Shown piece after piece: positions 7,494 through 17,051 of a DNA stretch of 39,727 nucleotides. Within the stretch, counting starts at the first letter, position 1; each line of letters starts with the position of its first letter. Below the pieces are notes generated by a model. It ran no database searches. It saw only the letters and a program-made list of their open reading frames with translations, and had not been told where the DNA came from. A program made the position numbers and the translations under genes. Source of the DNA: a virus; the IMG/VR virus record IMGVR_UViG_3300046513_000137, positions 1-39,727 of that record; one strand, written 5' to 3'.

Positions 7494-8225
7494 TCAGATC
7501 GTGAAGCGGCCGATATAGCGCCCGACGATCTGGATTTCGTCGAGGTTAAGCTCTCGGGTCGAATGCCTTGGGTTGTCAGATGAAATCTGAACAGTGATGA
7601 TTTCGTCGCCGGGACGCGAAGTCACTTCAAGGCGCTTCACCACCACGCCGCCAAATTCATCAGCGAGCGCATAGATCCCTGGCGGGGAAGGAACGCGATG
7701 CCTGGTGTCGACAAATACGACATCGCCATCCTCAATAGTGGGGGTCATGGAATCACCCCGTGAAGGGAAGGCGGCAACATGCGGCGCCCTCACGCCCATG
7801 CGCCCAAGCATCCAATCAGGAAGCCGCCAGTGGTCTCGCACAGCCTCACGGGCAAAGGAAATCCCGTTTCGGCTTGATACCTCCAGCGCAGCAAATCCGC
7901 CGCCGCCTAGGCCGGCAATCAAATCGATTTCCGGGATATCCTTGGAGTTGGTCTCTGGCCTCAAGTCGTCCTGATCTTCATGCTCATCTGGATCGAACGT
8001 CGCCAAGATAGGAGCGTCAGCTTTCGGGGGACGGTTGAGCATCAGCGCCTCTACGGTTGTCTCAAGCAGAGAGGCCATCTTCTCGGCTCGATCTCTCTTG
8101 AGCTGAGTGTGATCATTGGCGAGTCGATTGATGGTAGCGCGCGAAACATCCAATGCTTCAGCGAGCGCTTCCTGTGAGCCAATTTTTGATGCTTTGAGAA
8201 AAGGATCGAGCCAATTTTTTGACAT
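7494..8225 (-). CDS. cI: CI-type prophage repressor (N-terminal XRE HTH + C-terminal S24 autopeptidase)
   Basis: HTH is SQEALAEALDVSRATINRLAND. The S24 catalytic Ser is in AAFPSRGDSMTPTIEDGD and the Lys is in GGVVVKRL. It is transcribed divergently from the cro-like gene. Confidence 0.9.
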   Translation of the reverse strand: MSKNWLDPFLKASKIGSQEALAEALDVSRATINRLANDHTQLKRDRAEKMASLLETTVEALMLNRPPKADAPILATFDPDEHEDQDDLRPETNSKDIPEIDLIAGLGGGGFAALEVSSRNGISFAREAVRDHWRLPDWMLGRMGVRAPHVAAFPSRGDSMTPTIEDGDVVFVDTRHRVPSPPGIYALADEFGGVVVKRLEVTSRPGDEIITVQISSDNPRHSTRELNLDEIQIVGRYIGRFTI

Positions 8226-8282
8226 GGCGATTTATCCGCCATCTTTGGTAAACGATCTATGCCATAAAATGTTACACTGCCA

Positions 8283-8320
8283 TTGACATTGGTCGTAAAG
8301 TGTCGCAATAATTGCTACAT
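8283..8320 (+). promoter_or_regulatory. Candidate rightward early promoter (PR) with overlapping operator-like palindrome
   Basis: -35 TTGACA (8283-8288), a 17-18 nt spacer, then -10 CAATAAT (8306-8312). The perfect 11-bp palindrome GCAATAATTGC (8305-8315) and TGCTACAT (8313-8320) overlap the -10 and the start. Confidence 0.5.
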
Positions 8321-8516
8321 GACACTCGAACAGTATATTCATCAGCACACCACTGTAACAGCTTTTGCTGCTTTGCTGGGCAAGAGCCGGGCCCAAGTGC
8401 ACCGGTACATGCGCGGTGAAAATCTGAGCAAGAGCGTCATCGAAGAGATTTGCCGCGTAACTGACGGGGCTGTCGAACCAAAATCGTTCTTTGAAGTCGT
8501 GGAGAGCGCGGCATGA
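8319..8516 (+). CDS. cro: Cro-type small HTH regulator (65 aa)
   Basis: Start is the internal ATG 8319 of ORF 8283..8516. MTLEQYIHQHTTVTAFAALLGKSRAQVHRYMRGENLS has a Cro/YdaS-like HTH. It is divergent from cI. Confidence 0.8.
   Translation: MTLEQYIHQHTTVTAFAALLGKSRAQVHRYMRGENLSKSVIEEICRVTDGAVEPKSFFEVVESAA
8351..8371. promoter_or_regulatory. Second copy of the PL operator box, inside the cro-like ORF
   Basis: CACTGTAACAGCTTTTGCTGC here compared with CACTGTAACAGTTTATGCTAC at 5941-5961. 18 of 21 positions are identical and the first 11 are identical. Confidence 0.45.
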
Positions 8517-8722
8517 TCAGGAAGCGCATAACCCCTGACGAGTGGACCGAATGCGACGGCGCCTCCATGCCTGTCGCAGCCGATGCCGTAGTTGATGTGA
8601 AGTTCCGCGACAAAGTTGTCTGGCGCGGCGTTGACGCCGGTTGGTTCGACGAAGGCATCAGCAATTGGGTTCATTGCGGCACTCATCACGACATCACGCA
8701 TTTTCAGTTGGCGTCAGCATGA
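8513..8722 (+). CDS. hypothetical early protein (69 aa)
   Basis: Listed in the ORF track. ATGA overlap with the cro stop. Confidence 0.7.
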   Translation: MIRKRITPDEWTECDGASMPVAADAVVDVKFRDKVVWRGVDAGWFDEGISNWVHCGTHHDITHFQLASA

Positions 8723-8748
8723 CCCGCCACCGAAGAGGAGATCGCAGC

Positions 8749-9045
8749 ATGAAACGCGCAGCATTGGCACTATCAGCACTTCTCCTGGCTACCCCTGCAA
8801 TGGCGGATAGTAGCCTACGCATTGCGGCAATCACTGCTGCTGGCGTCGAGGTATGCGGGGCGGAAGTAGCCCCCGGCGTCCTCCGAGCCCTTGTCACTCG
8901 TGGTTCTGAAGAGGGAGGCGTATCGCTTGAACAAGCGGCCTTCATCACTCTCGGCATGAAGCTGGCATATCTGGACATCATCGCGAGAACGAACACGGCT
9001 GCTGAGTTCTGCTCTGCCAGCAAGCAGGCGAGGGTGGGTCGGTGA
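8749..9045 (+). CDS. secreted/periplasmic hypothetical protein with Sec signal peptide
   Basis: ATG 8749 has GGAGA 7 nt upstream. MKRAALALSALLLATPAMA|DS has a classical n-h-c signal with an AxA cleavage site. An alternative start at 8719 has an ATGA overlap with the upstream stop. Confidence 0.65.
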   Translation: MKRAALALSALLLATPAMADSSLRIAAITAAGVEVCGAEVAPGVLRALVTRGSEEGGVSLEQAAFITLGMKLAYLDIIARTNTAAEFCSASKQARVGR

Positions 9046-9362
9046 GCAACTTTCGCGTAGGGCAGAAGGTCGTTTGTGTCAGAAGTTGGGAGAACCTCTA
9101 CGGGCACAAGAACATCTCTGGGCCTCTTGAGGGCGAAATTTACACGATCCGGGAAATTGGTTTCATCCATCCTGACCGACCTGACATCTTGACGGTGCGG
9201 TTGGCTGAGATCGTTAACAGCGAATTGGACTCGGAAGAGTACGGCAAGTGGGAGCCTTCTTTCGCTGCCTACAGATTTCGCCCGCTCGTTGAGCGCAAGA
9301 CCGACATCTCCTGTTTCACCAAGCTTCTGAAGACGAAGAGCCTGGAGGAGTTGGCCCAATGA
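9042..9362 (+). CDS. hypothetical early protein (106 aa)
   Basis: Listed in the ORF track. GTG start overlapping the upstream stop. Confidence 0.7.
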   Translation: MSNFRVGQKVVCVRSWENLYGHKNISGPLEGEIYTIREIGFIHPDRPDILTVRLAEIVNSELDSEEYGKWEPSFAAYRFRPLVERKTDISCFTKLLKTKSLEELAQ

Positions 9363-9526
9363 CCGAGCTCCCCTCCTACCTTCTCGACGCCCTAGCCAGC
9401 TTCGACGAAGCAAGCGAACAACGAGACGATCAATCCTCCCAAGCCGATCTTTCCGCAGCATTCGAACGAATGATTGCTGCGATAGGGCAGGCGTTCGTGG
9501 AGATCGAACAGAGGGCAAACGCATGA
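9359..9526 (+). CDS. small acidic hypothetical protein (55 aa; below the ORF-track cut-off)
   Basis: My translation is MTELPSYLLDALASFDEASEQRDDQSSQADLSAAFERMIAAIGQAFVEIEQRANA. ATGA overlaps at both ends fill the gap between listed ORFs. Confidence 0.5.
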   Translation: MTELPSYLLDALASFDEASEQRDDQSSQADLSAAFERMIAAIGQAFVEIEQRANA

Positions 9527-9705
9527 GCACTACCGGATACACGATACTGATCCTAATAGCTGCAGTCGCCTTCTGGTCTGCGTGGCGCCAAGTCAAGGCT
9601 GCCTCAGAATACGACCGGCAGGAAGAGCTTGATTACGCCTGCATGTGCGCCCTTGAGGGCGACCTCACAAATTTCAAACCTGAACGTCAGTCTTCCTCCC
9701 ACTGA
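9523..9705 (+). CDS. small membrane protein (60 aa)
   Basis: Listed in the ORF track. N-terminal transmembrane stretch GYTILILIAAVAFWSAW. ATGA overlap with the upstream gene. Confidence 0.55.
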   Translation: MSTTGYTILILIAAVAFWSAWRQVKAASEYDRQEELDYACMCALEGDLTNFKPERQSSSH

Positions 9706-9715
9706 TCGTTCGGAA

Positions 9716-9956
9716 GCTGGTGCCGGTTTTTGGTCTCCTCTCGGACCGGCACCAGCGACATTCTCGGCAGAGACCACTCTGCGATTAAACGGACAGCGAT
9801 CGAACCAAGGGACGAGAAACTTTCCCCTTCTGGTTCGATCGCACCCTCAGAGCCTAGAGGCGGCGGCGGAAAGGCTCTGTGGATTTCAATGACTGGTTCC
9901 CGGCGGCGGGGGCCTGAGCGGAGAGGTGAAGACGCCATTGGCGTGGCTGCTTCACC
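9716..9956 (+). other. ORF-free block of four strong GC-rich hairpins
   Basis: Stems are 9716-9727/9745-9756 (12 bp perfect), 9796-9807/9831-9842 (12 bp perfect plus 4 more), 9848-9854/9873-9879 (7 bp), and 9925-9931/9950-9956 (7 bp plus inner 5 bp). Confidence 0.6.
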
Positions 9957-10090
9957 ATCTCCCACAATCTGAGTGCCTTTATCTCTCTGCATCTCACCGG
10001 CTCCTTCGAACGAGTCAAAGATGACAGAGAGGCTAGGGAATGTACGGCAATTGGTTTTCCAAAAACGGAAAGAATGTTTCCGAGGATAAG

Positions 10091-10459
10091 ATGACAAGCA
10101 CGGCGTTGATTGAAGCAAAAGGGTGGGCTGAACACTTGATGAACCTAGAGTTCTCAGGTCGCGGCGACCGTGAAAAATCCGCCCGCTATAGGCTCTCGAA
10201 GAAAACAGGAGTGCCGGAAAGCTATCTGTTTCGTCTACAGTACAAGACGAGGGAGATGAAAGACGTGGCTGGCGAAGTCTATAGGCGGCTTCGGCTGTAC
10301 TACGTCGAAGCCTGCCTCGCGAACGAGGAAGCAGCGGATCGGTACAGGTCCGAACGTCTAGGAAACACCGAAAATGAAACGACTGACCAAAAGCCTGCTC
10401 CGGCGGGGGTGGGAATGGCTGCGCCTAAAGCTGGCAAAGCTTCTTCAAAGAAAGCGTGA
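10091..10459 (+). CDS. hypothetical protein (122 aa), possibly DNA-binding
   Basis: Start is the internal ATG 10091 (MTSTALIEAKGW...) after GAGGA. It has a basic/low-complexity C-terminus. Function not recognised. Confidence 0.6.
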   Translation: MTSTALIEAKGWAEHLMNLEFSGRGDREKSARYRLSKKTGVPESYLFRLQYKTREMKDVAGEVYRRLRLYYVEACLANEEAADRYRSERLGNTENETTDQKPAPAGVGMAAPKAGKASSKKA

Positions 10460-10462
10460 GTG

Positions 10463-10669
10463 ATGGCGAAGATTGTTACCGAGAAATACGTCTGTGACCG
10501 GTGTGGTGGCCCGCTTGTCAAGGAATGCGGGCTCATCATCGAAGACGTTTCAATGTCGATATCTGGATACGACCCAAGAGGTTCGGGCGGGGCAACCAAG
10601 CGAGGCTTGGAGTTTTGCTACTCGTGTTCTGACCAGCTCAACAAATGGCTTCAGAACAAAGATTTCTAA
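10463..10669 (+). CDS. small zinc-ribbon protein (CxxC ... CxxC)
   Basis: MAKIVTEKYVCDRCGGPL ... EFCYSCSDQL contains two CxxC pairs. Confidence 0.65.
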   Translation: MAKIVTEKYVCDRCGGPLVKECGLIIEDVSMSISGYDPRGSGGATKRGLEFCYSCSDQLNKWLQNKDF

Positions 10670-10718
10670 CCAGTCCCCCACGGCTGCATCCCTTCCTCCA
10701 AGGAGCAAGCCGAAACTA

Positions 10719-10750
10719 CCGGATGGGTAATGCCCTCCGGGTTTTTCTTC
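10719..10750 (+). terminator. Rho-independent terminator inside the rightward operon
   Basis: CCGGATGGG (10719-10727), loop TAATG, CCCTCCGG (10733-10740). This gives 8 bp with one bulged T, followed by GTTTTTCTTC. Confidence 0.6.
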
Positions 10751-10766
10751 ACAAGAGGCAGCGGAA

Positions 10767-11528
10767 ATGACGGCCTACTACAATGAGATCGATCCATACG
10801 CAGCCCAATGGCTCCGCAATCTCATAGCAGCCGGTCACATCGCGCCAGGCGACGTAGACGAACGGAGCATCGTGGATGTCCACCCAGACGACCTTAGAAG
10901 CTATACGCAGTGCCATTTCTTCGCTGGAATCGGAGGGTGGTCCTACGCGCTTCGTCTTGCGGGATGGTCCGACGATCGACCTGTTTGGACAGGTAGCTGC
11001 CCCTGCCAGCCGTTCTCGGTCGGCAACGTTGCCCATGGCGGAGCGAAAGGCCAAGGCGATGAACGGCATCTCTGGCCGACTTTCCGAGACCTCATCGTCG
11101 AGCGATCGCCTTCAACAGTCTTTGGTGAGCAGGTTGCAGACGCGATTGGCTGGGGATGGTGGGACGAAGTTGCCCTTGACCTGGAAGCGCGCTCATACGC
11201 CTGCGCGGCGGTCATACTCCCAGCTAATGCTATCGGAGCAAGGCACAGACGCAAACGGCTCTTCTGGCTGGCCGACGCCGGCAGCGAGAGACGGAAAGGA
11301 CATCAGCCGATCGAACGCCTTTCTGTCGCAGCGCAAGCGCCACTCGCCATCGATGGCAACCCGCTTGTTGGAGCAGGGCGCGCACTGGACGGTGATTACC
11401 GCGATCTACTGCCTTGCGATGGGCTATCCGTCTCCGTGGAACGTCTTGCGGCCAAAGGATACGGCAACGCCATCGTCCCGCAGGCAGCGGCAGAAGTGAT
11501 CGGCGCCTACATGGAGATCGCAGCATGA
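10767..11528 (+). CDS. compact DNA (cytosine-5) methyltransferase
   Basis: Motif I FFAGIGGW, motif IV SCPCQPFS, motif VI-like VFGEQV, motif VIII-like GARHRRKRLFWLA, motif X GYGNAIVPQAA. See the finding on the fully open +1 frame. Confidence 0.8.
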   Translation: MTAYYNEIDPYAAQWLRNLIAAGHIAPGDVDERSIVDVHPDDLRSYTQCHFFAGIGGWSYALRLAGWSDDRPVWTGSCPCQPFSVGNVAHGGAKGQGDERHLWPTFRDLIVERSPSTVFGEQVADAIGWGWWDEVALDLEARSYACAAVILPANAIGARHRRKRLFWLADAGSERRKGHQPIERLSVAAQAPLAIDGNPLVGAGRALDGDYRDLLPCDGLSVSVERLAAKGYGNAIVPQAAAEVIGAYMEIAA

Positions 11529-11785
11529 CACAGAAGCTCCTCGAACTCTTCCGATCTGGAATGGACACCATGGACATCGCCGCCCACCTCGGCGGTGACG
11601 TCGCAGGCTGGACAGAGGCCCGCGTCTATCGCGTCCTCAACGCAGAGCGCCGAGAGGAGAGGGCACCGCCCATCACATGGGCAGACGTAAGGCCGAAGAA
11701 GCGCAAGCACGCGCCTACCGCCAAGCTTCGCAAGTCTGTGCCGTACGCTGGATCTGACGGCCGTCAGGATTGGGATCGCTTATGA
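11525..11785 (+). CDS. hypothetical small protein (86 aa), HTH-like N-terminus
   Basis: Start is the internal ATG 11525 (MTQKLLELFRSGMDTMDIAAHLG...). ATGA overlap with the methyltransferase stop. Confidence 0.6.
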   Translation: MTQKLLELFRSGMDTMDIAAHLGGDVAGWTEARVYRVLNAERREERAPPITWADVRPKKRKHAPTAKLRKSVPYAGSDGRQDWDRL

Positions 11786-12144
11786 TCCGGATCCACCTCC
11801 CGTTTCCACCAAGCGTCAATTCTGCCTATGCCAATGGCGGCAACAAGCGCGGCCGGCACAAGACGGCGGCATATCTGGCGTGGATCCAGGAAGCGTCAGC
11901 ACAGGTCAAGGCCGGCATGCGCCAGAACCTCGGCCACTACAGCCTGCACATCTGCCTTGAGCGTCCTGACAAGCGTCAGCGAGACCTCGGCAACTACGAG
12001 AAGTGCATCTCAGATTTCCTCGTCATGCACGGCGTCGTTCGTGATGACCACCTTTGCGAACGATTGACGATGACGTGGGGCGAGAACCTACCAGCTCCAT
12101 GCGTCGTGATCGTCCAGACAGCGGAAGAAGGGCTAGCAGCATGA
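11782..12144 (+). CDS. rusA: RusA-family Holliday junction resolvase
   Basis: MIRIHLPFPPSVNSAY ... RDLGNYEKCISDFLVMHGVVRDDH matches the RusA pattern (PPS.N; D.DN..K...D.L....DD). Confidence 0.85.
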   Translation: MIRIHLPFPPSVNSAYANGGNKRGRHKTAAYLAWIQEASAQVKAGMRQNLGHYSLHICLERPDKRQRDLGNYEKCISDFLVMHGVVRDDHLCERLTMTWGENLPAPCVVIVQTAEEGLAA

Positions 12145-12530
12145 AAATGTCAGAAGACGAAAGAGCCGGCTTAGAAACACTCAAGGCCAAGATGCCGGAA
12201 GACCTTGCGCTTGAGGTAGTTAAGTTCCGCCGCACCAAGAAGGCCCCGATTACGGCCCGCATCGCTCGAAGCCTGTTACGTGAGTACGAGGCCTATGGCG
12301 ACGTAGAGAAGGCTGCCGATATCCACATGATGCGCGGTTGGACCGGATTCGAAGCTGTGTGGGTCAAGAAGGCCCAAGGCTTCACTGATCAGAACCACCC
12401 GACGCCACGCCAGCCACAGACCCGCGAAGAATACATCCGCGAGGCCATACGCAAGAACAACGACGAATGGGAGGGCAACTCCCGCGCTCGTGATGTCCGT
12501 AGCGTCATTTCGCAGGCAACACGCCAATGA
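12141..12530 (+). CDS. hypothetical protein (129 aa)
   Basis: Start is the internal ATG 12141. ATGA overlap with the rusA stop. Confidence 0.65.
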   Translation: MKMSEDERAGLETLKAKMPEDLALEVVKFRRTKKAPITARIARSLLREYEAYGDVEKAADIHMMRGWTGFEAVWVKKAQGFTDQNHPTPRQPQTREEYIREAIRKNNDEWEGNSRARDVRSVISQATRQ

Positions 12531-12730
12531 TCAACCATGCCGATCGTCAACGCGCCGTCATCTACAAGGAAGGGCTCAAGCTCGTCGAGGAAGACGTATC
12601 GCTTGAGGCATTCGTCATGGGCGTCAACCGCCGCAAGTGGCCAGTTGGTGCCCGCCACTTTTGGGCCTTGTCTCAAGTCTGGGCCCCACGAAACGCAGCA
12701 ATTCCAGAGCCGAAGGAAGCAGCCCAATGA
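12527..12730 (+). CDS. hypothetical protein (67 aa)
   Basis: Listed in the ORF track. ATGA overlaps on both sides. Confidence 0.6.
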   Translation: MINHADRQRAVIYKEGLKLVEEDVSLEAFVMGVNRRKWPVGARHFWALSQVWAPRNAAIPEPKEAAQ

Positions 12731-13293
12731 ACATGAGACCAGACATTGACATCAACAAAGCGTCAGAGATGTGGAACGGCGGCTTTTCGGCAGGGGCAAT
12801 CGCGGCGGAATTCGGCGTAACTCGAAACGCCATCATCGGCATATCGCACCGCAACCGGGATATGTTCCCACACAAGCCGCTTAGAGGCAGCCGCTACACA
12901 CCGGCTGCAGAGCGCGTTCTTGCTCCCAAGCGGGAACTGACACCGGAAGAACGGGAACAACGCAACCTGCGCCAAGCTGAGCGGCGCCGGAAGGCAGCAG
13001 AGGGTAGAGCGCTCACCGACAAGCAGCGCATCGAGGCTTCGAAGGAGGAGGTGGCAGAGTTCAAGGCCGGCACGTCCCGCTTTCTGCGCATTCACCCTGA
13101 TGATGAGCCTCGGCTGGCAACAGGCAAGCTTCTTCACGAGCTGGAGCAGCATGAATGCCATTTTCCGCTCAATCACGGTGGCCCGTTCCTCTTCTGCTCC
13201 GAGGCCACAGAGGCGGGAGCATCATACTGCGAACACCACAGAGAACGGTCGATGCCTCCACTTGAGCGGCGACGACTGAAAGCAGCAGCATAG
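12727..13293 (+). CDS. GcrA-family cell-cycle-regulator-like transcription factor (188 aa)
   Basis: Start is the internal ATG 12727. The N-terminus WNGGFSAGAIAAEFGVTRNAIIGISHR matches the GcrA HTH. The C-terminus HECHFPLNHGGPFLFCSEATEAGASYCEHH matches the GcrA C-terminal Cys/His block. Confidence 0.8.
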   Translation: MNMRPDIDINKASEMWNGGFSAGAIAAEFGVTRNAIIGISHRNRDMFPHKPLRGSRYTPAAERVLAPKRELTPEEREQRNLRQAERRRKAAEGRALTDKQRIEASKEEVAEFKAGTSRFLRIHPDDEPRLATGKLLHELEQHECHFPLNHGGPFLFCSEATEAGASYCEHHRERSMPPLERRRLKAAA

Positions 13294-13304
13294 CAACGAG
13301 GGAC

Positions 13305-13916
13305 ATGACCATGGCGGCAAAATGGTTTTGCATCAGACTCAAACCCCAAGCGCAGCGACCTGCCAAGCAGGATCCGCGCATCACCAACATCGAGTTCTCT
13401 CTACGGCAGGAAGGCTTTGACCACTACATGCCTCTGGAGCGGCGTGAAATCGTGCACCACAGGACCAAGAAGCCGATCGACAAGCAATACCCGCTCATCC
13501 CAGGCTATGCCTTCGTCTGCGACGTGGACGACTGGCTGCGCCTCAACAACTGCGATTTCGTGGCCGGTGTCCTCGGTGTGAGGGGAACCCCCATGCCGAT
13601 CATGCCAACGGTCATTGACGCCGTTCGCGATGCCGAGGCCGTCATCCTCTCCGAATACGAGAGGCAGAAGGCCATGCGCCGCCAGCGGGAGAAAGAGCAG
13701 GCCGACCGTCTGCAGCACATTCCGCAGCGCCGCGCCCGTCAGATGTACCCAGCAGGAACGCCAATCGTCATCGACCGCACGCACGTCCTCCTTGGCGGCA
13801 TGAAGGGTAGGGTAGTGGACGCAACCGGCCGGCAGACCATCAAGGCAGTGATTGAAACGCTCAACGGCATGGTGAATGCAGAGCTGTCGTTGGCATTTGT
13901 GGAGAAGGTGGCGTGA
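13305..13916 (+). CDS. NusG/RfaH-family transcription elongation/antitermination factor (NGN + KOW)
   Basis: The NGN domain is marked by WFCIRLKP, YPLIPGYAFV and VAGVLGVRGTPMPI. The KOW-like C-terminus is GTPIVIDRTHVLLGGMKGRVVD. Confidence 0.75.
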   Translation: MTMAAKWFCIRLKPQAQRPAKQDPRITNIEFSLRQEGFDHYMPLERREIVHHRTKKPIDKQYPLIPGYAFVCDVDDWLRLNNCDFVAGVLGVRGTPMPIMPTVIDAVRDAEAVILSEYERQKAMRRQREKEQADRLQHIPQRRARQMYPAGTPIVIDRTHVLLGGMKGRVVDATGRQTIKAVIETLNGMVNAELSLAFVEKVA

Positions 13917-14026
13917 TGACGGACGAAGTGATTAAGCTTGTGTCTATCGGTATGCTCGGTTGGGGTCTGGGTTTCTTCTCTGGTTGCGTTTACACGGTGG
14001 TGAGAGGGTGGGCACAAAACCAATGA
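13916..14026 (+). CDS. tiny membrane peptide (36 aa)
   Basis: My translation is MTDEVIKLVSIGMLGWGLGFFSGCVYTVVRGWAQNQ. The start overlaps the NusG-like stop, and there is an ATGA overlap with the next gene. Confidence 0.4.
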   Translation: MTDEVIKLVSIGMLGWGLGFFSGCVYTVVRGWAQNQ

Positions 14027-14235
14027 TTAAAACATACGATCAAGGGTATAGAGACGGAGCTAATGAGGCACTGAAGGCGGCTTCAAAATTCCTAAAAGAA
14101 ATTTCCGATGAAGAACTTTCTAGTGCGGAGTGCCATAGAGGTGTGGACATAGATTTATTTTATTACCACTCGTATCGAGCTAGTACTTATTTGACAGCCT
14201 CAGATCTTGTTTTGGAAATAAAGCTCGAATCCTGA
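14023..14235 (+). CDS. low-GC moron, hypothetical protein (70 aa)
   Basis: Start is the internal ATG 14023 (MIKTYDQGYRDGANEALK...). My hand count gives about 39% G+C (84 of 213), against a visibly GC-rich window. Confidence 0.6.
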   Translation: MIKTYDQGYRDGANEALKAASKFLKEISDEELSSAECHRGVDIDLFYYHSYRASTYLTASDLVLEIKLES

Positions 14236-14350
14236 CTCCGTGCGTCGGAGCCGCCTGTTGATACCTGATTGTATCTATTGATCATTAACCGCAAATCAGT
14301 TAACAATTCGGCCAGTGATTTGTTGGGCTGTGCTGTAGCGGAACATCGCC

Positions 14351-14435
14351 GGGCCCCATGGGAGAGCTTCACGGCTCCCAGCTTCAGCGGAATATTCTCT
14401 GAATTTGGAAGAGGGCTTCCCCGTCAATGGGGCCC
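14351..14435 (+). other. 85-nt cloverleaf-like four-way junction in the late-operon leader (candidate structured RNA)
   Basis: Closing stem GGGCCCCAT/ATGGGGCCC (9 bp). It encloses three 5-bp hairpins: 14360-14379, 14383-14403 and 14407-14420. Confidence 0.35.
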
Positions 14436-14635
14436 TTGAACGTTTGAGGGATAAGGCCTCGCATCTTCCAAAGCCATAGGAGACGGCCTCCTTCATAGCC
14501 GTAGTTGGGTAACGGGTCTGGAAAAGTCCTTGTAGCCAGACGCCCGCAAGGGGCCGACTAGGGCATGAATTCGAGGCAATGCCTCAACGATATCGGGAAG
14601 GGCAGAAGCCTGGGTGTGGAGCGGCGTAAGGCTGC

Positions 14636-14905
14636 ATGATGGTTGTACGGGCCGAAGAAGCCGTGCAAGTGCGCTCCCAAGCCTTCCCGATCATTTCAGG
14701 AGATATCGTGGACCCCCTCGACATCCTCCCCGATCCCTTCTCCGCCCTAGACAACTGCTGCTACATGCGCAAAGCCACCATGGACGGAATAGAGGGCTAC
14801 GTTCTTCTAGACTGCGACGGAGAGGTTGAGTTCTTCACCGACAACCGCAGCAACATCTTCTTCCATGCCGCAAAGCATGAGCTGGTGATCGTCCAGCCGA
14901 ATTGA
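14636..14905 (+). CDS. hypothetical protein, start uncertain (ATG 14636 or GTG 14708)
   Basis: Listed in the ORF track. GTG 14708 is preceded by AGGAGA (14697-14702). Confidence 0.5.
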   Translation: MMVVRAEEAVQVRSQAFPIISGDIVDPLDILPDPFSALDNCCYMRKATMDGIEGYVLLDCDGEVEFFTDNRSNIFFHAAKHELVIVQPN

Positions 14906-14914
14906 GGTGCAAAG

Positions 14915-15064
14915 ATGGCTCATGACCGCCCGATAACGGAATGGAAGCCTCTATGGTTCTTCCCGTGGGTTGAGAGCCGTCGGCGCATGGCCTTCCTCGA
15001 CACCAACCCTAACGTGCCGCTCGATCTCGTCCCCACTTGGAATGAGTACCGTTGGCGCAAGTGA
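14915..15064 (+). CDS. small Trp-rich hypothetical protein (49 aa)
   Basis: My translation is MAHDRPITEWKPLWFFPWVESRRRMAFLDTNPNVPLDLVPTWNEYRWRK. A GAGGTG SD lies at 14904-14909. Confidence 0.45.
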   Translation: MAHDRPITEWKPLWFFPWVESRRRMAFLDTNPNVPLDLVPTWNEYRWRK

Positions 15065-15183
15065 CCCGCCCCATTCTCATCCTCCTCACCATAACCCTCC
15101 TAGTTATAGCAGCCGCCTCCATCATTTCATGCGCTGCTCCTCAGGTGTGCAGGTATTGCTGGGTGGCAGGAACAAGCCAATGA
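15061..15183 (+). CDS. small membrane/lipoprotein-like peptide (40 aa)
   Basis: GTG start with a GTGA overlap. Sequence is MTRPILILLTITLLVIAAASIISCAAPQVCRYCWVAGTSQ. Confidence 0.4.
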   Translation: MTRPILILLTITLLVIAAASIISCAAPQVCRYCWVAGTSQ

Positions 15184-15341
15184 AAGACATGAAGATAGCG
15201 ATCGGCGGCTTCTGCTTGTTCTGGCTCGTCGTCCTTATGTCCGTTGATTGGACTGCTACCGCGCCACACGACCAGAACGCCTCGAACAGCGCGGCATTCC
15301 TGACTGGCCTGACCATTGGCACCGCGTCAGGTGGTAGATAG
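15180..15341 (+). CDS. small membrane protein (53 aa)
   Basis: Start is the internal ATG 15180 of ORF 14970..15341. MKDMKIAIGGFCLFWLVVLMSV. ATGA overlap with the upstream gene. Confidence 0.5.
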   Translation: MKDMKIAIGGFCLFWLVVLMSVDWTATAPHDQNASNSAAFLTGLTIGTASGGR

Positions 15342-15463
15342 CGCTCATCGTAGAAAATTCTCCGCCGACCTCTCGGCTGGATAGAAATGAAATTCCACCA
15401 GCCGTAATTGGAGTGGAGCGAGATAATGAAAATCAACACCTTAGCCTTTGAGAACAAAATCTG

Positions 15464-15778
15464 ATGTTCGAGGCAGGCAAAAGCGGGAACCCAGGCGGTC
15501 GCCCAAAGCACAAGCCGTTTCAAGAAGCGCTCAGGATGGAGATGCTCGCTGCTGAACGTGGCGAGGAATGCATTGCTCCTGTCGGCTCTCTTCGCTGGAA
15601 TGCGAGGGAGCTTCTTAAGAAGGGTGATGTTCCGTCTATTCGTGAGATTGCTGATCGTCTCGATGGGAAGGTAGCTCAGGCAATCGTCGGCGGCGACGAG
15701 GATGACAATCCGGTCAACGTCGTACACCGCATCGAACGTCACATAGTCCGTGCGAACTCTTCAGATACCAACGGCTGA
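15464..15778 (+). CDS. terminase small subunit (DUF5681-like)
   Basis: The N-terminal motif GKSGNPGGRPKHK is typical of this TerS family. It lies immediately upstream of TerL and overlaps it. Confidence 0.7.
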   Translation: MFEAGKSGNPGGRPKHKPFQEALRMEMLAAERGEECIAPVGSLRWNARELLKKGDVPSIREIADRLDGKVAQAIVGGDEDDNPVNVVHRIERHIVRANSSDTNG

Positions 15779-17051
15779 GGTCTTCGAGCCTCTTCTCGCC
15801 CCATCTCGATACAAAGGCGCAAAGGGCGGTCGTGGCTCTGGCAAGTCGCATTTCTTCGGTGGCCTGATGATCGAGGACCATCTCGCGGAACGCGGGATGC
15901 TATCGGTCTGCATTCGTGAAGTGCAAAAGACGCTGGCCGATTCCTCGAAGCGATTGCTTGAGGGGAAGCTGGCTGATTTCGGCTTGGGAGAAGCGGACGG
16001 GTTCAAGGTCTTCCGCGACACGATCGAGACGCCAGGAGATGGCGCGATCATCTTTCAGGGCATGCAGGACCACACAGCGGAATCGATCAAGTCGCTCGAG
16101 GGATTCAAGCGGGCTTGGTGGGAAGAAGCGCAGACGGCCTCGGGCCGATCCCTCAACCTGCTTCGCCCAACGATCCGCGCTCCCGGCTCGGAGATCTGGT
16201 TTAGCTGGAACCCGCGCCGCAAGGTCGACCCTGTTGACCTGATGATGTGTGGGGATGAACGGCCGACTGGTTCGGTTCTCGTCACAGCCAATTGGAGAGA
16301 TAACCCCTGGCTCACTCCAGAGCTTGAGCAAGAGCGCCTCGACTGCCTTCGCATGCAGCCCGACCAATACGACCATATCTGGGAGGGCGGGTACTTGAGC
16401 GTTGCATCAGGCGCCTACTTCGCCAGACATCTCGCGGACGCCAAGAATGAGGGCCGCATAGGCAAGGTGGCTGCCGACCCGCTCATGACCATCCGGCTCA
16501 TCTGCGATATCGGCGGCACTGGCGCACGAGCCGACGCATTCACAATCTGGGCATGCCAGTTCATCGGCAAGGAGATCCGGTGGCTCGACTATTACGAGGC
16601 AGTTGGTCAACCGCTGGCCTCGCATCTCAATTGGTGCAGGTCAAAAGGCTACACGCCAGAGCGGGCTCAATTCTGGCTGCCGCACGATGGCTCAACCAAC
16701 GACAAGGTTTACGACGTTTCCTACGAAAGCGCGCTCCGTGACGCTGGATACAAGGTTACGGTCGTCCCCAATCAGGGGAAGGGCGCTGCATCTGCCCGTA
16801 TCGAAGCAGCAAGACGCCTCTTCCCAAACATGTGGTTCAACGAGGCGACGACAGAAGGCGGTCGTGCTGCTCTTGGCTGGTATCACGAGAAGAAAGACGA
16901 CGCTCGCGGCATTGGCCTTGGTCCAGAGCACGATTGGGCCTCGCACGGCGCTGACTCCTTCGGGCTTGGCTGTGTCGTCTACGAAGAACCTCACGCTCCA
17001 CGGAAGAAAGACCCGCGCGGCCATGCCGGCGCAGGCGCCTGGATGGGATAG
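15750..17051 (+). CDS. terL: terminase large subunit (PBSX/Terminase_3-like)
   Basis: Walker A motif KGAKGGRGSGKSH. A 433-aa ORF positioned before the portal gene. Confidence 0.9.
   Translation: MRTLQIPTAEVFEPLLAPSRYKGAKGGRGSGKSHFFGGLMIEDHLAERGMLSVCIREVQKTLADSSKRLLEGKLADFGLGEADGFKVFRDTIETPGDGAIIFQGMQDHTAESIKSLEGFKRAWWEEAQTASGRSLNLLRPTIRAPGSEIWFSWNPRRKVDPVDLMMCGDERPTGSVLVTANWRDNPWLTPELEQERLDCLRMQPDQYDHIWEGGYLSVASGAYFARHLADAKNEGRIGKVAADPLMTIRLICDIGGTGARADAFTIWACQFIGKEIRWLDYYEAVGQPLASHLNWCRSKGYTPERAQFWLPHDGSTNDKVYDVSYESALRDAGYKVTVVPNQGKGAASARIEAARRLFPNMWFNEATTEGGRAALGWYHEKKDDARGIGLGPEHDWASHGADSFGLGCVVYEEPHAPRKKDPRGHAGAGAWMG

Follow-up and report, generated by a model that had tools for sequence, protein, structure and literature searches.

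A +1-frame gene nested within a phage C5-cytosine methyltransferase gene and its probable role as the second subunit of a two-chain enzyme

Described two-subunit methylases and the present locus

M.EcoHK31I from Escherichia coli, which recognizes YGGCCR (Lee, Kam & Shaw 1995), is a naturally heterodimeric C5-cytosine methyltransferase whose β polypeptide is encoded entirely inside the α gene, in a different reading frame. In the accounts of this enzyme given in PMC2836561 and PMC3404938, the α chain holds motifs I–VIII and X together with a predicted recognition domain, the β chain holds motif IX, and activity requires association of both chains; the first 42 residues of β are described as dispensable, with Met codons 17 and 26 usable as starts. 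The present analysis concerns a 39,727 nt stretch of viral DNA (IMG/VR record IMGVR_UViG_3300046513_000137; hereafter the window, meaning the whole stretch), in which a C5-cytosine methyltransferase gene, here called α, encloses a second open reading frame (ORF), here called β. It is quite probable that this locus encodes an α/β C5-cytosine methyltransferase of the M.EcoHK31I type. The nested architecture is known from that enzyme but obscure, and the window gene is a further case of it.

Compared through the published layout descriptions, the window gene resembles M.EcoHK31I in its nested β and in the division of the motifs, I–VIII plus X on one chain and IX on the other. Likewise, the dispensable β N-terminus of about 42 residues is paralleled in the window by a leader of about 50–70 residues, predicted to be disordered, with clustered ATGs. 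M.EcoHK31I is part of a restriction–modification system, whereas the window gene is an orphan prophage methylase, and the window α differs further in carrying a motif II–III-like segment before motif I. Both chains are needed in M.EcoHK31I; by analogy, both would be needed here.

M.AquI (CYCGRG; Karreman & de Waard 1990), in the description given in PMC3404938, is another natural C5 methylase made as two polypeptides that need to assemble, the split falling in the variable region. Its pieces are consecutive, α with motifs I–VIII plus a portion of the variable region, β with the rest and motifs IX–X, whereas in the window motif X stays in α and β is nested, being co-linear with about 80 % of α. 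A different overlap in the same gene class is the subject of a 2025 paper (PMC11855218), in which out-of-frame HNH endonuclease genes lie in insertions within actinophage methylase genes and the question is raised of how they are translated.

In the ORF listing of the window, α is the frame-0 ORF of 253 aa and β is a +1-frame ORF of 207 aa that begins with ATG and lies wholly inside α on the same strand (Table 1); it is conserved among homologues. A +1-frame codon is made up of positions 2 and 3 of one frame-0 codon and position 1 of the next. An earlier note, made from the letters of this DNA and a list of its ORFs, had already pointed to both ORFs, and their coordinates, lengths and +1 relation agree with the listing. 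The frame-0 motifs that it had named (I, IV, VI, VIII and X) are all readable in frame 0, and the +1 peptide strings that it had quoted all occur where it had placed them. The same nucleotides do read DLE in frame 0 and TWK in the +1 frame, and likewise LFWLADA and GWPTP. Its hand counts of G+C at third codon positions (GC3) were reproduced on recomputation: 47/60 (78 %) in the +1 frame against 31/59 (53 %) in frame 0 for 11281–11460, where 32/60 had been counted for frame 0; 68 % against 60 % for 11100–11280; and 65 % against 62 % for 10876–11100. The third forward frame also opens from 11414, as it had noticed, in an ORF at 11414..11785.

Selection on the two reading frames

A set of 160 loci with α homologues, 45–72 % identical, was fetched from viral contigs and bacterial genomes, the hosts of the latter including Rhizobium, Paraburkholderia, Pseudomonas, Xenorhabdus and Morganella. 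For openness, 158 genes with 220 codons or more and a G+C content of 51–68 % were assessed, and codons and starts were counted in a 152-gene alignment. Expectations for the +1 frame came from synonymous shuffles that keep the α protein and its codon usage (5000 for the window gene). Taken alone, the window gene is moderately unusual, with a stop-free +1 run of 213 codons against a shuffle mean of 113 (P=0.015). The earlier note had asked whether the +1 frame stays open in aligned homologues, and it does: the longest +1 run covers a median of 89 % of the gene and at least 80 % of it in 96.8 % of the 158 genes, the corresponding median for the +2 frame is 21 %, and the shuffle P for +1 openness is 0.05 or less in 135/158. 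Counted along α, +1 stops number 302 against 226 expected in codons 1–36, 20 against 100 in codons 37–108 and 45 against 439 from codon 108 onward. The excess ahead of the β start (10767–10874) may reflect selection for ending out-of-frame translation, or it may be chance.

Codon choice in α is free in codons 1–80, and throughout the region of the β leader the α wobble positions remain free (relative codon entropy about 0.9). Over α codons 108–171 there is strong synonymous-site constraint, so that the suppression of synonymous variation in the annotated frame, for which the earlier note had proposed to look, was found there. At positions where β is conserved, single α codons are frozen. V123 is GTT in 151/152 homologues and is thus also fixed by the β frame; further cases are L132 (CTC, 96/96), L134 (CTT, 87/89), E140 (GAA, 139/147), G147 (GGG, 111/114) and V156 (GTC, 104/105).

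In 11262–11441 the two products diverge at very different rates. Within the window subfamily, identity to the window over this segment is 0.62–0.97 for β and 0.29–0.50 for α, and in codons 181–195 it is 97 % for β versus 47 % for α. Nucleotide diversity at α positions 1/2/3 is 0.11/0.07/0.45 in codons 1–36, 0.42/0.18/0.15 in codons 166–225 and 0.30/0.23/0.46 in codons 226–245, where α-type codon periodicity resumes. The most variable site is therefore β position 3 within 11262–11441 and α position 3 elsewhere, and this movement to β position 3 and back points to protein-coding selection on the +1 frame, not to RNA structure or composition. The GC3 advantage of the +1 frame in 11281–11460, from which the earlier note had read a better coding signature, arises because this stretch evolves under +1-frame selection. 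On these comparisons, both frames are under purifying selection and the nested ORF is a real gene, a case of real dual coding; among the options that the earlier note had left side by side, dual coding is the one favoured by the comparative evidence on both frames.

Frame 0 is likewise kept open where its product is poorly conserved. Across linkers of up to 274 codons it contains 0 stops, against about 290 expected from synonymous shuffles of the β codons, with a median per-gene chance of a stop-free linker of 0.095. The genes were delimited by their frame-0 ORF, which limits the reading of this count, yet about 94 % of 162 loci reach motif X. The stop-free linkers imply that α is read through, and read-through of frame 0 combined with the lack of conserved slippery sites makes two polypeptides likely. 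Two separately initiated polypeptides are the economical reading of the locus.

An ATG is present at the position of the window β start in 116/152 homologues and within −29 to +4 codons of it in 151/152, with clusters at −8, −6, 0 and +4 codons. α D37, which contributes to this ATG, is GAT in 115 homologues versus GAC in 22; its neighbour D42 is GAC in 120 versus GAT in 19. In homologues, α R33–S34 is often written (A/C)GG AGC, which places GGAG 8 nt before the ATG; of the 116 homologues with this ATG, 69 show a Shine–Dalgarno (SD)-like motif, and the rare codon AGG encodes R33 in 49/152. The β start is conserved. Initiation of β on its own, with a dispensable N-terminus and alternative Met starts, is indicated at the sequence level by the ATG clusters, by the unconstrained codons 37–108 and by the predicted disorder of residues 1–51.

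Division of the methylase motifs between the two predicted chains

The α protein matches PF00145 over residues 75–170 (40.4 bits with a gathering cut-off of 22, E=3.3e-10) and phrog_363 (E=4e-70). A phmmer search of the PDB with the α sequence alone gave no match, and a family profile was needed: built from 31 relatives, it matches M.HhaI over residues 3–176, which are motifs I–VIII only, in a hidden Markov model (HMM) alignment (E=6e-20). In the same family-profile alignment, the M.HhaI small domain, which comprises the variable region and motif IX, has no counterpart in α. Of the M.HhaI sequence used, the alignments confirm residues 3–177 and 178–327. Motifs I, IV, VI, VIII and X are all present in the α chain, as in C5-methyltransferases generally and as in M.EcoHK31I, and residues P79, C80, Q81, E121, R162, R164 and N234 are invariant in alignment A2. 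A variable region and motif IX were not found between motifs VIII and X of the α chain. The linker there is 29–50 % identical among close relatives and evolves with β-frame periodicity, and the motif-IX signature sits in the +1 frame. Likewise, a recognition domain of the kind reported for the α chain of M.EcoHK31I was not found in the window α, the WPTP units being conserved in β.

In the HMM alignment to M.HhaI, 35 residues between motifs I and IV, at the place of HhaI motifs II–III, are left as a gap, and the α segment YYNEIDPYAAQW...GDVDERSI, which precedes motif I, resembles HhaI 36–70 (YSNEWDKYAQEVY...GDITQV), as judged by eye only. The gap and the segment together suggest a circular-permutation-like motif order in the α family, with II–III moved before I.

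β matches phrog_1008 over residues 6–155 (E=7e-13). The window β is among the short ones: it has a single WPTP unit and the near-invariant ARDGKDISRSNAFLSQRKRHSPSMATRLLEQG block, and it closes with ITAIYCLAMGYPSPW; across loci, the number of WPTP..D units per β ranges from none to six. In long relatives of 350–400 codons the +1 frame is protein-like, reading ...SSASAALQSSLVSRLQARTASLGSTLYKLTWKERATPAGRSISALRASARRTSG..GWPTPxARDWKD followed by more LAGWPTPTA units, and in frame 0 the stretch linking motif VIII to the C-terminal block shows no conservation and abounds in G, R, E and H, yet is still open. The motifs LTWK..TP, GWPTP..D and LMG.P..W, which the earlier note had named as family blocks, are real and family-wide. 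In an AlphaFold2 (AF2) model of the window β alone, residues 1–51 have a predicted local distance difference test (pLDDT) score below 50 and are predicted to be disordered; helices are placed at 52–65 and 74–93, hairpin strands at 101–107 and 113–119, and C-terminal helices within 160–196, with pLDDT of about 80–85 over helix 74–93, the hairpin and most of the C-terminal helices. Tryptic peptides specific to β include DISRSNAFLSQR, HSPSMATR and LLEQGAHWTVITAIYCLAMGYPSPWNVLRPK.

The end of β, ITAIYCLAMGYPSPW, resembles motif IX of M.HhaI (LHPRECARVMGYPDSY), and its MGYP..W signature stands 8 codons before α motif X. Motif IX in the +1 frame just before motif X in frame 0 is the canonical order, as the earlier note had observed. 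A bridge to single-chain enzymes is provided by ShiLan gp70 (JN020143, 46343–47512), a single-chain C5 methylase of a Mycobacterium phage, whose frame 0 reads motifs I–VIII, three LLPTP..DG.GG units, RLAPAFSEWMMGWPAGWVT and IIGNGVVPQQ. It shares with the window locus motifs I–VIII, the repeated (L/W)PTP..D, a motif IX of the form (E/R)W(L/M)MG.P..W and a GN.V motif X, but there the repeats and motif IX share the frame of the catalytic domain in one chain, and only a stretch like the N-half of β is left in the +1 frame. A profile built from proteobacterial β C-halves only scores 28.9 bits on gp70 residues 238–351, against a maximum of 9.8 in 1000 composition-preserving shuffles, and pairwise BLAST of β against gp70 gives co-linear alignments of 120–170 residues. 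By this profile match, the C-half of β is a homologue of the variable region and motif IX, which single-chain phage methylases have in frame after motif VIII and before motif X; it is through this match that motif IX was located in β. In terms of function, β probably supplies DNA recognition.

The +1 frame of ShiLan gp70 (L169:1309–2478) contains an open stretch of about 155 codons that resembles the β N-half (DTSSWKMWPD...SETWPPSGMTRSG...LLPTP) and ends where frame 0 takes over the repeats. The gene of a sister phage, OwlsT2W gp71 (L165:1024–1737), has the split α/β form. From these sequences, a single indel seems enough to turn the split form into the fused one or back, and even in ‘single-chain’ enzymes the N-half of β may be conserved as a nested product in its own right.

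In the arrangement proposed, one transcription unit would yield two polypeptides, α (about 28 kDa) and β (about 23 kDa), from the same strand. α would supply the catalytic domain with motifs I, IV, VI and VIII, and motif X after the unconserved linker. β would initiate at its own SD site and ATG inside α, at 10876, and would consist of a leader of about 50–70 residues, dispensable in sequence, followed by a helix/hairpin module, the WPTP..D unit and motif IX (LAMGYPSPW). By binding α it would add what α is missing, the small domain with its variable/target-recognition region and motif IX. An α/β heterodimer, as in M.EcoHK31I, would then be the active form, and this enzyme would probably methylate phage DNA and so protect it from host restriction. 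Translation of β, formation of the heterodimer, the need for β and the anti-restriction role are the parts of this scheme that we infer.

Several results weigh against such an enzyme. The homologues share phylogeny, so that the counts given above are not counts of independent events. Although parts of the AF2 model of β are well scored, the model as a whole is weak (mean pLDDT 59.5, predicted template modelling score 0.25), and Foldseek found no match to it in the PDB at E≤0.001. β has no match in Pfam or NCBIfam, and its profile found no relative among PDB sequences; of the separate HMM searches with each frame that the earlier note had proposed, those with α thus succeeded in both PF00145 and phrog_363, and those with β in phrog_1008 without a Pfam family. 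Aligned to M.HhaI by hhalign, the β profile gave a sole alignment, at HhaI 268–291, which is motif IX, but not significantly (probability 0.3 %). In the descriptions of M.EcoHK31I that were compared, the recognition domain is assigned to α, whereas the conserved variable region of the window, with its WPTP units, is in β. Finally, the α C-terminal block of long relatives, RPVEPGTFPLAHGAP, is by eye loosely motif-IX-like, and α might therefore not strictly need β.

Table 1. Coordinates of the methylase locus and of neighbouring genes in the window
Feature	Coordinates	Strand	Basis or remarks
α, C5-cytosine DNA methyltransferase large (catalytic) subunit	10767..11528	+	PF00145, phrog_363 and M.HhaI profile match
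α motif II–III-like N-terminal segment, YYNEIDPYAAQW...GDVDERSI	10776..10874 (residues 4–36)	+	Precedes motif I; by eye
GGAG, SD-like site	10864..10867	+	8 nt upstream of the β ATG; from α R33–S34 CGG AGC
β gene (putative second subunit)	10876..11499	+	+1 frame, 207 aa; phrog_1008 match; family-wide openness and wobble constraint
β start codon ATG	10876..10878	+	GAT+G of α D37–V38
β N-terminal leader	10879..11091	+	Open yet sequence-unconstrained; predicted disordered
α motif I, FFAGIGGW, S-adenosylmethionine (AdoMet) binding	10917..10940	+	Sequence and M.HhaI alignment
α motif IV, PCQPFS, catalytic cysteine	11001..11018	+	Sequence and M.HhaI alignment
β conserved helix SSSSDRLQQSLVSRLQ (11092–11139) and beta-hairpin LPLTWKRAHTP (11170–11202)	11092..11202	+	Doubly constrained with α motifs VI–VIII
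α motif VI, FGEQV, ENV-type	11121..11135	+	Sequence and M.HhaI alignment
α motif VIII, RHRRKRLFW	11241..11267	+	Sequence and M.HhaI alignment
β-selected segment	11262..11441	+	β: WPTP unit, near-invariant ARDGKDISRSNAFLSQRKRHSPSMATRLLEQG block, motif IX; α: unconserved VIII–X linker
β WPTP-unit string, SGWPTPAARDGKD	11263–11301	+	
β motif-IX equivalent, ITAIYCLAMGYPSPW	11395..11439	+	Aligns to ShiLan gp70 motif IX region, E=0.004
β CLAMGYPSPW	11410–11439	+	
α C-terminal block with motif X, DGLSVSVERLAAKGYGNAIVPQAAAEVIGAY	11418..11510	+	G233, N234 and A235 conserved
α motif X, GNAIVP	11463–11480	+	Frame 0
Downstream gene	11525..11785	+	ATG overlaps the α stop (ATGA); context only
CI-like repressor	7494–8225	−	
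RusA-like resolvase	11770–12144		
Replication O-like ORF	12054–12530		Listed start overlaps RusA by ~90 nt
Antiterminator	13305–13916		
Large terminase	15750–17051		

The surrounding genes from 7494 to 17051 make up the early region of a lambdoid temperate phage, and it is in this prophage setting that the window methylase lies, as an orphan. The nearest α relatives are in Rhizobium and related Hyphomicrobiales genomes. The gene immediately downstream of α has no PHROG match.

Competing explanations

A double programmed frameshift, from frame 0 into the +1 frame for the WPTP unit and motif IX and back into frame 0 for motif X, would give a single-chain methylase, with or without an unshifted product. 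The order in which frames are conserved in the window subfamily (0/+1/0) fits the canonical succession I–VIII / variable / IX / X, and single-chain relatives with exactly this order, such as ShiLan gp70, exist. Such a mechanism is nonetheless very improbable, because neither an X_XXY_YYZ heptamer nor a homopolymer occurs in the window gene, and among the 152 homologues no such site is conserved at either of the transitions. With its conserved ATG and SD site, the +1 frame is already open from α codon 37, about 130 codons ahead of the point where a shift would have to occur; the long linkers of frame 0 are open although a shifted ribosome would not read them; and the +1 constraint from codon 108 overlaps α motifs VI–VIII in most homologues, whereas one chain cannot hold both. 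Moreover, two programmed shifts within one gene have no known precedent. As a programmed-frameshift gene the locus was rejected, since a conserved slippery sequence was not found and the alternative frame is not confined to the part downstream of a shift; the frameshifting that the earlier note had offered as an option fails on the same points, both frames being open beyond the segments needed. At column 98 of the alignment (about window codon 95, near 11050) a +1-frame X_XXY_YYZ heptamer occurs in 71/152 homologues, not including the window, and probably derives from conserved α DERH codons. It is somewhat easier to imagine, if still improbable, that β is real and separately translated but has nothing to do with completing the methylase, being overprinted on the gene and serving, for instance, in regulation, in anti-defence or as an accessory DNA-binding protein. 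Its lack of a Pfam family, a PDB relative and a confident fold match would suit this, as would its N-half, in which the helix and LTWK..TP hairpin have no M.HhaI counterpart and which ShiLan gp70 still keeps in the +1 frame although its repeats and motif IX have been joined in frame to α. However, the C-half of β is homologous to the variable region and motif IX of a single-chain C5 methylase, the MGYP..W signature falls exactly at the place of motif IX, α is without a conserved VIII–X region, and the precedent of M.EcoHK31I favours a subunit role.

Two further explanations would dispense with a β protein or with an intact gene. That +1 openness and conservation are by-products of a G+C-rich gene and a conserved α, with no β made, draws on the moderate P value of the window run alone and on the fact that off-frame translations of conserved genes retain some similarity. 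It is scarcely credible in view of the shuffles, which preserve the α protein and codon usage and fail to reproduce the openness, including that of a Paenibacillus phage at 47 % GC; a by-product could not, moreover, be far more conserved than α in 11262–11441 or produce the periodicity switch there, and the +2 frame is full of stops. The identity contrast, the periodicity switch and the stop counts refute it on sequence evidence. Two compensating indels, in a pseudogene or through assembly error, could instead have displaced the middle of a single-chain methylase, and three sequences, L042, L097 and the gene-caller product P0114, do swap frames part-way. This, too, is extremely unlikely for the window gene: the two-frame layout, with both frames open end to end, recurs in isolates, prophages and metagenomes, at about 150 independent loci, and is also seen in finished phage genomes such as K1H, epsilon15 and Jacopo, and both frames are under purifying selection. 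The comparative data refute the indel or assembly-error explanation, and with it the corresponding option of the earlier note. As for the three exceptions, in the viral contig L042 frame 0 enters the β C-terminus and motif X lies in the third frame, in the Xenorhabdus genome L097 the frames swap near the end, and P0114 is a called protein that reads α, then β, then α. They are probably indel errors or pseudogenes; natural fusions are possible.

Breadth of the nested arrangement and its implications

Annotation of the nested ORF is uneven. In Escherichia phages K1H and fTaEco03 both coding sequences (CDSs) are annotated, as ‘C-specific methylase’ and a nested ‘putative Mte8-like protein’; the original GenBank entry for Pseudomonas phage PMG1 has the nested ORF as the sole CDS called at the locus; and in Paenibacillus phage Jacopo both CDSs are annotated as methyltransferases. 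The nested ORF of K1H matches phrog_1008 (E=1.4e-55), longer β relatives also match phrog_31772, and both of these PHROGs are labelled ‘DNA methyltransferase’. ‘Mte8-like’, PHROG 1008 and PHROG 31772 all denote the same nested +1 ORF as the window β, as annotation labels only. A literature search for ‘Mte8’ returned a passing mention in one phage genome paper only, and the searchable literature yielded no account of nested ORFs within phage cytosine methylases, of what these labels mean, of expression or of a link to the M.EcoHK31I architecture, and no description of a wide spread of that architecture.

The protein database contains 238 close relatives of β, almost all of which have neither a name nor a Pfam domain. 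With the β profile, 23,634 cluster representatives are matched at E≤1e-3, of which 6,872 reach E≤1e-30. Distant methylase lineages with a canonical N-terminus also hold a β-like ORF nested in the +1 frame. Shuffle P values were <1/3000 for Paenibacillus phage Jacopo (GC 47 %), 0.001 for Salmonella phage epsilon15 gp41, 0.002 for Mycobacterium phage OwlsT2W gp71, 0.007 for the JGI viral contig L164, whose β is P0094, and 0.09 for Rhodobacter phage RcMcDreamy gp22. The presence of the nested ORF in distant lineages implies that the architecture is old and widespread. In L164 (2501–3463) the β ATG stands 4 nt after the α ATG and β extends 226 nt beyond the α stop; P0094 has a weak precomputed Pfam match to PF27050 (Phage_P22_Y8K6), probably on this C-terminal extension.

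A broader proposal, for which the arguments seem to us evenly balanced, is that a large, phylum-spanning clade of phage and prophage C5 methylases consists of obligate α/β enzymes, with the recognition subunit encoded in the +1 frame of the catalytic gene. If so, overlaps of 200–400 codons would be present in thousands of lineages and would be among the longest and most widespread same-strand overlaps in double-stranded DNA (dsDNA) viruses. The number of WPTP..D units may then set or multiply sequence specificity, and split and fused forms may inter-convert through single indels.

Same-strand gene pairs that are long and fully nested are rare in dsDNA phages and bacteria, where their reality is often doubted. 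In the window, 207 codons fall inside a gene of 253, and in relatives as many as about 400 codons are nested; the comparative case for selection on both frames is unusually clear, and the two products appear to be parts of a single enzyme. The single-enzyme case of 1995, M.EcoHK31I, would thereby be extended to a family of at least 6,872 cluster representatives (E≤1e-30). Gene callers usually report one of the two genes, so that methylase subunits are missed or called ‘hypothetical’. Prediction of phage methylase specificity would need the +1 frame, and ‘silent’ recoding of such methylase genes would harm the partner subunit. Additionally, the locus would offer a tractable system in which to follow the co-evolution of two proteins on shared nucleotides.

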